Under the pieces are notes generated by a model. It was not told the DNA's origin. It ran no database searches and was given only the letters and a program-made list of their open reading frames with translations. Positions 59,402-59,625 of a DNA stretch of 64,000 nucleotides are shown here, piece after piece. The DNA is from Bacteroidia bacterium (GTDB lineage: Bacteria > Bacteroidota > Bacteroidia > NS11-12g > UBA9320): positions 416,723-480,722 of the forward strand of contig CBDCFW010000006.1 in the NCBI GenBank assembly GCA_965216465.1. The letters are read 5' to 3'. Both the position numbers and the translations under genes were made by a program. How positions within the stretch are numbered: the first letter of the stretch is position 1; every line of letters begins with the position of its first letter.

Positions 59402-59456
59402 AAAAAATTGATTATTGAGAGTTGTACCCTATAGAAAATCCCATCTAATTATTAGA

Positions 59457-59466
59457 GGGGGGGGGG
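59457..59466. repeat. G10 homopolymer ~56 nt upstream of the 59401 start
   Basis: Direct reading: agagggggggggggtacc. Confidence 0.9.
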
Positions 59467-59625
59467 TACCATTTCTCTCCCCATCGGGAGGGGGTGGTTT
59501 TGTGAGTGAGTCTTGGCCTTTCATCTATCAGATTGGTGTTTTTCAATTGGTTATTTAAGTAGTAAGTCGTACATTAACCACCAAAATATGTATATGTTCT
59601 TAGTTATAGAACATAGGTTAGAATT

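Follow-up and report, generated by a model that had tools for sequence, protein, structure and literature searches.

A ten-cytosine tract upstream of a p115-family gene in a Bacteroidota chromosome: apparent expansion of one box of a conserved bipartite element, and a plausible slippage-prone tuning site

What is a run of ten consecutive G doing just ahead of a small gene cassette in DNA with a G+C content of 38%? The run (G10) lies at 59457-59466 on the plus strand of the 64,000-nucleotide stretch of Bacteroidia bacterium contig CBDCFW010000006.1 analysed here (the window, at its full length), and reads as C10 on the strand of the downstream, minus-strand genes, the first of which encodes a 115-amino-acid protein, p115. 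The window has no other G-run of six or more and no C-run longer than C7, and about 0.002 G-runs of ten or more would be expected in it if bases were independent and identically distributed; the tract is real, and well beyond what chance would give. It sits within a 224-nt divergent intergenic region (59402-59625), 159 nt upstream of the start of the divergent plus-strand gene. A sequence-only reading of this DNA had placed it about 56 nt upstream of the first gene and had noted a G/C-rich stretch next to it. Both statements agree with the sequence: 55 nt lie between the tract and the ATG of p115 (59401), and the plus strand continues 3’ of G10 with tacc atttctct and then ccccatcgggagggggtgg (59479-59497), that is, with TACCATTTCTCT followed by the G/C-rich CCCCATCGGGAGGGGGTGG. 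The same reading had assigned the tract to an AAA_24 operon, and an AAA_24 gene is indeed present; it is the second gene of the cassette, after p115 and before a gene for a DUF3871 protein.

Comparison with about 100 related loci shows that the tract does not stand alone and forms one block of a conserved element. We gathered p115-relative loci from species genomes (22), through exact-protein look-ups of the closest homologues (5) and from metagenomes (80), with box statistics covering 76 loci and 65 unique instances. On the gene strand, the element consists of an A-rich lead, a C-run (box 1), about 23 nt usually containing GGG, the dinucleotide TA, a second C-run (box 2) and then G, with the consensus CC..aAAAAcaA-C5-ACy..TTT…GGGAAATA-C4-5-G. 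The window copy reads CACAAAACCA-CCCCC-TCCCGAT-GGGG-AGAGAAATGG-TA-C10 and lies 55-103 nt upstream of p115 on the same strand. Its parts, and the two features between it and the gene, are as follows.

59495..59504, minus strand: A-rich, G-poor lead CACAAAACCA 5’ of box 1, from the position table and profile alignment (A in up to 47/65 unique instances at each of 8 positions upstream of box 1).
59486..59494, minus strand: box 1, CCCCC (59490-59494) then TCCC, from family box comparison and profile alignment.
59479..59482, minus strand: GGGG run in the inter-box spacer, which by predicted folds can pair with box 1 (CTCCC-GATG-GGGAG) or with C10; GGG is present in 45/65 spacers of unique instances.
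59467..59468, minus strand: TA dinucleotide directly 5’ of box 2 (…GGTA-C10); TA lies at most 4 nt from box 2 in 36/65 unique instances.
59457..59466, minus strand: C10 homopolymer, assigned to box 2 of the bipartite C-box element from its sequence, its uniqueness, the 64 other copies and a profile built without the window.
59440..59456, minus strand: small palindrome or hairpin right after C10 (TCTAATAATTAGA + TGGG), from predicted folds.
59402..59430, minus strand: conserved leader directly before the start codon (GGTACAACTCTCAATAATCAATTTTTT; family consensus GTTYAACTYAAAAA…), from conserved columns before the ATG in all clades.

When aligned with its closest relatives, the window (…CCACCCCCTCCCGATGGGGAGAGAAATGGTA-CCCCCCCCCC-TC) stands beside locus L001 (…GACCCCTACTCCG…GGAGGGTA-CCCCCC-TG), L023 (…TACCCCCCTCCG…TTTGGGTAG-CCCCCC-TG) and L026 (…AACCCCCACCC…GGAGGGAGTAG-CCCCC-GG), and the box-2 position is occupied by GGTA-C6 in L001, GTAG-C6 in L023, ATAG-C6 in L030 and GTAG-C5 in L026. 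Across the 76 loci box 2 is C4 in 30, C5 in 35, C6 in 10 and C10 in the window alone; all 64 other unique instances carry C4-C6, and the window’s C10 is the family maximum. Box 1 ranges from C4 to C9 (mode C5), the two C-runs start 24-32 nt apart (mode 28-29), and G follows box 2 in 33 of the 65 unique instances. The gap between the boxes is 19-28 nt with a mode of 23-24, and the window, with 23 nt, keeps to that mode, which argues against a switch acting through promoter spacing. A profile built without the window copy, and from sequence only, found its top match in the 64 kb at 59458-59504 on the minus strand (14 bits, E~0.004). We set aside a poly-G sequencing artefact as the tract’s origin given its exact homologous box-2 position and the conserved flanks on both sides, as well as a 47-amino-acid open reading frame (59415-59558, plus strand) that would have made G10 intragenic, as this has a TTG start and no homologue and the region is non-coding and variable in all relatives. 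Judging from these alignments, the window’s C10 is an expanded variant of box 2 in a conserved element, rather than an anonymous, unstable promoter-spacer tract.

Two further sequence features accompany the element. The motif (T/G)GGTAC occurs twice on the minus strand of the window (59427-59433 and 59467-59473) and also in L001; one copy lies directly 5’ of the C-run and the other about 40 nt downstream, before the conserved leader, and the two are able to pair (GTACCC/GGGTAC), enclosing the small post-tract hairpin. In many clades, a second conserved feature, an A/T palindrome of the form AAAAAATTTTTT-N2-5-(G)GAAAATTTT, stands 35-65 nt upstream of box 1 (L078, L072, L081, L005 and L013 are examples); it is degenerate or absent in the window clade (window, L023, L026, L030).

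To which gene does the element belong? A strict form of the pattern gave 30 matches upstream of p115 homologues and none elsewhere in 524 kb of related DNA, both strands, in a search that covered local neighbourhoods of +/-4 kb. The genes that follow p115 vary (AAA_24/DUF3871, AAA_24/RadC, RadC alone, or an ExoX-like gene), and its upstream neighbours differ from locus to locus: WYL/HIRAN, Mrr/RelA-SpoT, HORMA/DUF6602, a methylase, Fic and Mrr/ABC-3C. With 30 of 30 strict matches at p115 in the midst of varied neighbour genes, the element can be assigned to p115, and since the upstream neighbours differ in every relative, to p115 and not to the divergent gene. Rfam 15 returned no match for 59300-59750 at E<=10 save a chance JA04 hit, and none in 20 related loci at gathering thresholds, and a known RNA family was accordingly rejected. 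From the sequence comparisons as a whole, the bipartite C-box element appears to be a previously undescribed, p115-specific upstream element of many Bacteroidota.

The canonical Bacteroidota sigma-ABfr promoter has a -33 TTTG, an AT-rich spacer and a -7 TAnnTTTG box, and is found at 81% of primary transcription start sites in B. thetaiotaomicron (PMC7366714). No exact TAnnTTTG was found on the gene strand of the window’s intergenic region, nor downstream of box 2 in any of 71 unique loci; anywhere in the 300 nt upstream of these 71 loci there are three, against about 11 expected by chance (an estimate from base composition). Sigma-70-type promoter hexamers are likewise missing from the region, and we rejected a canonical promoter of either kind. 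This lack of canonical -7 boxes leaves the C-box element as the best promoter or leader candidate. In 33 loci with short leaders, box 2 is only 21-60 nt from the ATG, coming as close as 21-40 nt. Moreover, the geometry of the element, a C-run, 18-24 nt and then TA-(0-2)-CCC(C)-G, resembles TTTG, 19-21 nt and TAnnTTTG with C in place of T. Were the C-boxes the promoter, C10 would itself be the -7-like box, and the 23-nt spacing between the boxes would not be affected by its length. Like the sigma-ABfr promoter, the element is bipartite, similarly spaced and directly upstream of the gene in loci without a canonical promoter; unlike it, it has C-runs for T-runs, a G-rich block in the spacer and variable box lengths. 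We infer that the element is most likely the promoter and/or the immediate 5’ leader of p115 operons; its strict linkage to a gene for a predicted OB-fold protein would be explained equally well by an autoregulatory operator. The ‘promoter region’ of the earlier reading is itself inferred: this is the only plausible regulatory region of the cassette, and no canonical Bacteroidota promoter was located in it.

What, then, could the expansion do? We would give an even chance to the following account, in which C10 is an expanded box 2 of the p115-linked element, the element is a likely promoter or leader, and slippage of the tract tunes cassette expression. The element, which travels with p115-family genes across Bacteroidota, would most likely be a non-canonical promoter and/or 5’ leader, here of the p115/AAA_24/DUF3871 cassette. 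In this genome box 2 has grown from the usual C4-C6 to C10, which preserves the box 1-to-box 2 spacing and lengthens the segment between the TA-C box and a downstream feature, perhaps the transcription start or the small hairpin. Replication slippage is an intrinsic liability of a 10-bp G:C homopolymer, and a slippage-prone C10 would probably make cassette expression heritably variable in this lineage, with graded (rheostat-like) tuning more likely than a clean ON/OFF switch. C10 is, in short, a plausible slippage-prone tuning site in a new cis-element.

Family-wide box lengths bear on this proposal. The density of G/C runs of at least seven is 0.81/kb over the 260 nt that precede p115 genes and 0.0065/kb elsewhere, an enrichment of about 125-fold, and 19 of the 20 enriched runs are C-runs on the gene strand, suggesting that the boxes expand repeatedly in evolution. 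At the same time, box lengths are clade-specific and conserved, for example C7 across the diverged clade L033/34/47/49/67/72, which suggests that length is functionally constrained. Homopolymers associated with promoters, phase-variable or rheostat-like, include the poly-C of Bordetella fim. Others are the poly-G of T. pallidum tpr (PMC7864442) and the poly-A of N. meningitidis nspA (PMC6389960), and the T-tract rheostat of H. pylori sabA illustrates that a tract beside, and not between, core elements can grade expression (PMC4081817). The window tract is like these in having 10 G:C pairs, in lying upstream of an operon, in being locally unique and in being long enough to slip, with sabA the closest case; its length also lies within the range of contingency loci (about 8 or more), with C10 known from one assembly. 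It is unlike them in being a grown block of a conserved motif and not a dedicated spacer, with box spacing unchanged, in preceding genes of recombination type (SSB-like, Sak4-like) and not surface or restriction-modification genes, and in belonging to an environmental Bacteroidota host.

Several observations weigh against the proposed tuning. Among 38 close locus pairs (upstream regions 85-98% identical) we counted 75 indels, none in C-boxes (C4-C6) and 11 in A/T runs; with C4-C6 never differing among close pairs and C7 constant in one clade, the family is not hypervariable. The C10 allele is known from a single assembly: exact-protein contig look-ups for p115, p215 and P0001 gave no second strain, all five local proteins are singletons and come from a single 1.3-Mb contig, and no metagenome contig was found to carry the two flanks around a tract of any length from 6 to 16. 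If that assembly is long-read based, the length of C10 could be miscalled by 1-2 bases. The fold predicted for the window leader is not significant (z-score -1.28) and does not change from C6 to C13, because extra Cs merely widen an internal loop, so a change of +/-1 may do little. No family-wide covariation was found for the box helices, and once composition is controlled for, neither strand of the element core is significantly structured. As a promoter, the element is looser than a typical core, with a GGG block whose distance from box 2 ranges over 2-12 nt and with boxes that differ in length by 1-2 nt. A promoter read by an alternative sigma factor should also turn up at further genes, while this one was found next to p115 alone in the local neighbourhoods searched.

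A sharper version of length control, which we consider unlikely, is the classical slipped-strand switch, in which gain or loss of a single G:C would alter promoter geometry and turn the cassette ON or OFF at high frequency, possibly with read-through into genes further downstream. The length and uniqueness of the tract upstream of an operon, the enrichment of long C-runs at the element and the precedents in other phyla (PMC7864442, PMC6389960, PMC4081817) are all consistent with it. Moreover, two giant proteins sorted by the type IX secretion system (T9SS) are encoded downstream of the cassette on the same strand, at 48743-56848 (1754 amino acids, Por_Secre_tail, and 945 amino acids), and the closest relatives likewise have giant T9SS proteins downstream (L023 8339-; L026 6880-). 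We found no cassette-strand terminator between DUF3871/p85 and the 1754-amino-acid protein, which makes co-transcription, and hence read-through control of surface proteins, conceivable. Surface proteins are the usual targets of phase variation. On the other hand, giant downstream open reading frames occur in only 5/60 loci family-wide, and a general synteny with giant T9SS adhesins was rejected on that count; the immediate operon encodes recombination-type proteins; the tract lies outside the inter-box interval, whose 23-nt spacing is unchanged; and the 75 indels between close relatives spare the C-boxes altogether. Slipped-strand phase variation of simple sequence repeats in Flavobacteriia or other Bacteroidota did not turn up in the literature searched, the phase variation known in Bacteroides being that of invertible promoters (as far as the reference list of PMC7366714 goes). 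The earlier claim of a poly-G phase-variation switch is thus supported in part: the tract is real, beyond chance and, at 10 G:C, long enough to be slippage-prone by contingency-locus standards.

Could the element instead act as RNA? The motif would then lie in the p115 5’ leader, where the G-run would pair with box 1 or box 2, or p115 would bind its own unstructured, C/A-rich leader, and C10 would shift the pairings or the number of sites. Autogenous control of this kind is exemplified by T4 gp32. An autoregulatory operator predicts the strict linkage of the motif to p115 whatever follows (AAA_24/DUF3871, RadC or an ExoX-like gene), and p115 is predicted to be an OB-fold, SSB-like protein. In individual folds the G-run pairs with box 1 (window, L001, L023, L030) or with box 2 (others), with a mean z-score of -0.72, and over 200-nt upstream regions the gene strand is the more structured (mean z-score -1.63, 14/40 below -2, vs -0.90 for the opposite strand). 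In Flavobacterium-type loci (L006-L022), the TA-C5 box is directly followed by a hairpin, which lies about 110-150 nt ahead of the p115 homologue and covaries clearly, including by G·U pairs on the gene strand (CAAGAAA/TTTCTTG, CAGGAA/TTCTTG, CAGTCT/AGATTG, CAGTCC/GGATTG, CAGGGA/TTTCTG); this covarying hairpin at the box-2 position is not generalisable to the family. A T-rich stretch after it gives it an attenuator-like look. The closest relatives of the window have other palindromes at the post-tract position (L001 CTGATCATTAGATCAG; L028 GACT…AGTC), and the stem of the window’s own post-C10 hairpin is extendable, in predicted folds, by the last Cs of the tract.

A precedent for length effects in a leader is the variable G-repeat in the 5’ untranslated region of H. 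pylori tlpB, the target of the small RNA RepG (PMID 24474799, as cited in PMC7366714). If the window tract is transcribed, the two would be alike in that leader homopolymer length sets pairing strength, as the window’s C-run could pair with the nearby G-run, and differ in that the window pairing would be intramolecular and its predicted fold is insensitive to length. Against an RNA element, RNAalifold on a MAFFT alignment gave no consensus structure, and complementarity of the bases flanking the C-runs was at chance level compared with permuted controls (56 vs 55.9 for the box-2 helix), for which reasons a consensus RNA structure was rejected. The core is not significantly structured; the window’s 200-nt upstream region is not structured either (z-scores -0.6 and -0.4), and a 73-nt DNA segment from it folds at -10.6 kcal/mol into two small hairpins. 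To this may be added the insensitivity of the window leader (z-score -1.28) from C6 to C13, the lack of an identified promoter upstream of box 1 in the window clade and the low scores of the SSB fold (E~0.03, TM~0.35). Overall, we judge an RNA-level function improbable, if not remote.

The same insensitivity of the predicted fold would be expected if the expansion were neutral. Here C5-C6 would have slipped to about C10 in a box that needs only four or more Cs, with no regulatory effect and with a length that may be partly artefactual. We treat this as a serious alternative, of low probability. Box lengths from 4 to 9 all occur in intact loci, the cassette open reading frames of the window are intact, and C10 is a single observation from a single assembly. 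At the same time, the conservation of box lengths within clades and their invariance between close relatives argue for a constraint on length, and the near absence of G/C runs of seven or more elsewhere (0.0065/kb) makes persistence of C10 unlikely without recent origin or selection. The placement of the tract exactly at the box-2 position, between homologous flanks, is not that of an inserted artefact.

It is also possible to read the region on the opposite strand, where a pattern scan pointed to one further feature.

59473..59504, plus strand: terminator-like hairpin TTCTCTCCC-CATC-GGGAGGGGG then TGGTTTTGTG, the complement of box 1 and its lead.

The element might accordingly be a plus-strand terminator or the 3’ end of a small antisense or divergent RNA, with G10 competing for the C-rich arm, or else G10 and GGGAGGGGG might form a G-quadruplex on the template strand. 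Read on this strand, the conserved A-rich lead is a T-tract (most instances have 4-6 T within 8 nt), and by raw minimum free energy the opposite strand folds better in 53/65 instances. Against its own shuffles, it is unstructured (mean z-score -0.17, 2/59 below -1.5), and the raw asymmetry was rejected as an artefact of G-richness. The terminator pattern at 59473-59494, followed by TGGTTTTGTG, shows no family-wide structure, no plus-strand gene ends there, and the P1 loops, mostly 8-19 nt, are unlike those of intrinsic terminators. The quadruplex pattern (loops 1/22/1) is possible only from G7 up, which excludes relatives with C4-C6 and any function for the family, and a quadruplex-aware fold used the GGGAGGGGGTGG segment and left G10 unused. 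We consider an opposite-strand function very improbable.

If C-run length does tune expression as proposed, slipped-strand events would regulate genes in a phylum whose phase variation is put down almost wholly to DNA inversion, and the tuning would act on a recombination-type cassette (SSB-like, RecA/Sak4-like and DUF3871) found in defence islands. Independently of the tract, the comparison defines a sharply gene-specific upstream element with 65 unique instances and without an Rfam match or canonical promoter. This element is a point of entry for studying both non-canonical control of transcription or of leaders in Bacteroidota and what DUF3871 and p115 do. Should length be irrelevant, the finding would reduce to an unusual expansion of one block of the element. 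A bolder extension, which we hold to be quite unlikely, is that the C-box element is a new class of Bacteroidota cis-regulator, a homopolymer-bearing, non-canonical promoter or leader reserved for an SSB-like gene at the head of recombination cassettes, whose C-run lengths serve as a heritable dial, with C10 a phase- or rheostat-variable contingency allele that gives stochastic control of a Sak4/SSB-type module in an environmental Bacteroidota.

The genes around the element are the following.

59054..59401, minus strand: p115, 115 amino acids, first cassette gene, with a predicted OB-like fold and a disordered acidic tail (open reading frame, AlphaFold2 model, fold search).
58087..58965, minus strand: AAA_24 ATPase, Sak4-like/RecA-superfamily, second gene (PF13479 3e-19; phrog_1366 5e-82; phrog_124 Sak4-like 2.8e-12; RecA core 4.6e-19).
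57174..58094, minus strand: DUF3871 protein, third gene, whose first 8 nt are shared with the end of the AAA_24 gene (PF12987 2.6e-87).
56932..57189, minus strand: 85-amino-acid open reading frame (p85) after DUF3871, with a TTG start, uncertain (open reading frame call, positional counterparts).
59626..60273, plus strand: divergent neighbour gene, 215 amino acids, with a weak GNAT-like match (open reading frame call, Pfam).

The order p115-AAA_24-DUF3871 recurs in L002, L003, L004, L017, L023 and L024; p85 has a weak positional homologue in L017 (E 2e-4), and L024 has an 82-amino-acid gene at this place. p115 has 149 homologues at E<=1e-10, the nearest 76% identical; it has no Pfam match, and other sequence-family searches were likewise empty. 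Its AlphaFold2 model (mean predicted local distance difference test score, pLDDT, 82) has a β1-3/α/β4-5 barrel topology and a disordered tail, EEAVFESAQELAL. The top Foldseek matches, in the PDB and among BFVD viral models, are SSB and PriB proteins, with weak scores (E 0.02-0.5, template modelling score, TM, 0.3-0.4), and we tentatively regard p115 as an SSB-like OB-fold protein on the strength of this model. The AAA_24 protein is, by its profile matches, a Sak4-like ATPase of the RecA superfamily. PADLOC has no model for the three cassette proteins, and a known defence system was rejected on this basis. A 19-nt direct repeat (ATTAATAATTCTAATTATT x2.1) lies at 58960-58998, within the 88 nt that separate the p115 stop from the AAA_24 start in the presumed operon.

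Two known arrangements recall the locus. Frpo/ssi single-stranded DNA promoters stand directly upstream of SSB genes in the leading-region anti-defence islands of conjugative elements, and the long stem-loop of Frpo imitates duplex -35/-10 elements (PMC11541004). The C-box element is likewise conserved, non-coding and placed immediately before an SSB-like gene, one whose company includes methylase, RadC, toxin and defence/anti-defence genes; it differs in that the window’s upstream region is short, has no significant fold on one strand or the other and lacks sigma-70 hexamers, and in that no oriT or transfer genes were seen. In the Sak4-SSB recombination modules of temperate phages, an SSB-type partner sits beside a Sak4-like ATPase (PMC5928155), much as the gene for a small, putatively SSB-type protein here adjoins that for a Sak4/RecA-like AAA_24 ATPase. 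The cassette departs from these modules in that p115 is weakly SSB-like by fold, in being mostly chromosomal and in the addition of DUF3871.

The window itself is Bacteroidota chromosome, not phage. Its proteins include T9SS sorting domains (Por_Secre_tail, CHU_C) and a type I restriction HsdR, and 17 tRNA genes form an array on one strand (plus) over about 2.1 kb (29062-31168). None of 50,697 phage records matched the window at the nucleotide level, phage protein matches were limited to distant AAA_24 hits, and the cassette is mostly chromosomal, with 4 viral (IMG/VR) loci vs more than 200 metagenomic ones; together with the T9SS cargo genes and the tRNA array, these results led us to reject a phage origin. 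The 36-64 kb part, which carries the cassette, has a lower G+C content and encodes a Zeta toxin, PIN_8, an IS3 transposase, an AAA_21/15 ATPase and an HNH-type effector-like protein; it is a defence-type variable island.

A few minor features of the window complete the description. A WYL-WCX-PhyH fusion protein (27147-28877, minus strand) adjoins the tRNA array. Tandem repeats of related units, CCCCATCATTAA x3.3 and TTAATGGGG x5.9 (the reverse complement of CCCCATTAA), lie at 9843-9882 and 24846-24898, inside open reading frames 9650-10585 and 24644-25492, both on the plus strand, and are chance matches to the C-box regular expression. The HsdR-like open reading frame (749 amino acids, 61663-63912, minus strand) aligns only to 371-1091 of the 1107-position REase_I model and begins inside the ResIII domain; it may have lost its N terminus or carry a frameshift close to the end of the window. 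The IS3-family transposase, at 40351-41687 on the minus strand beside the PIN_8, Zeta toxin and AAA_21/15 genes of the low-G+C island, is encoded by two consecutive open reading frames (HTH_Tnp_1, then rve) in the usual frameshift arrangement.

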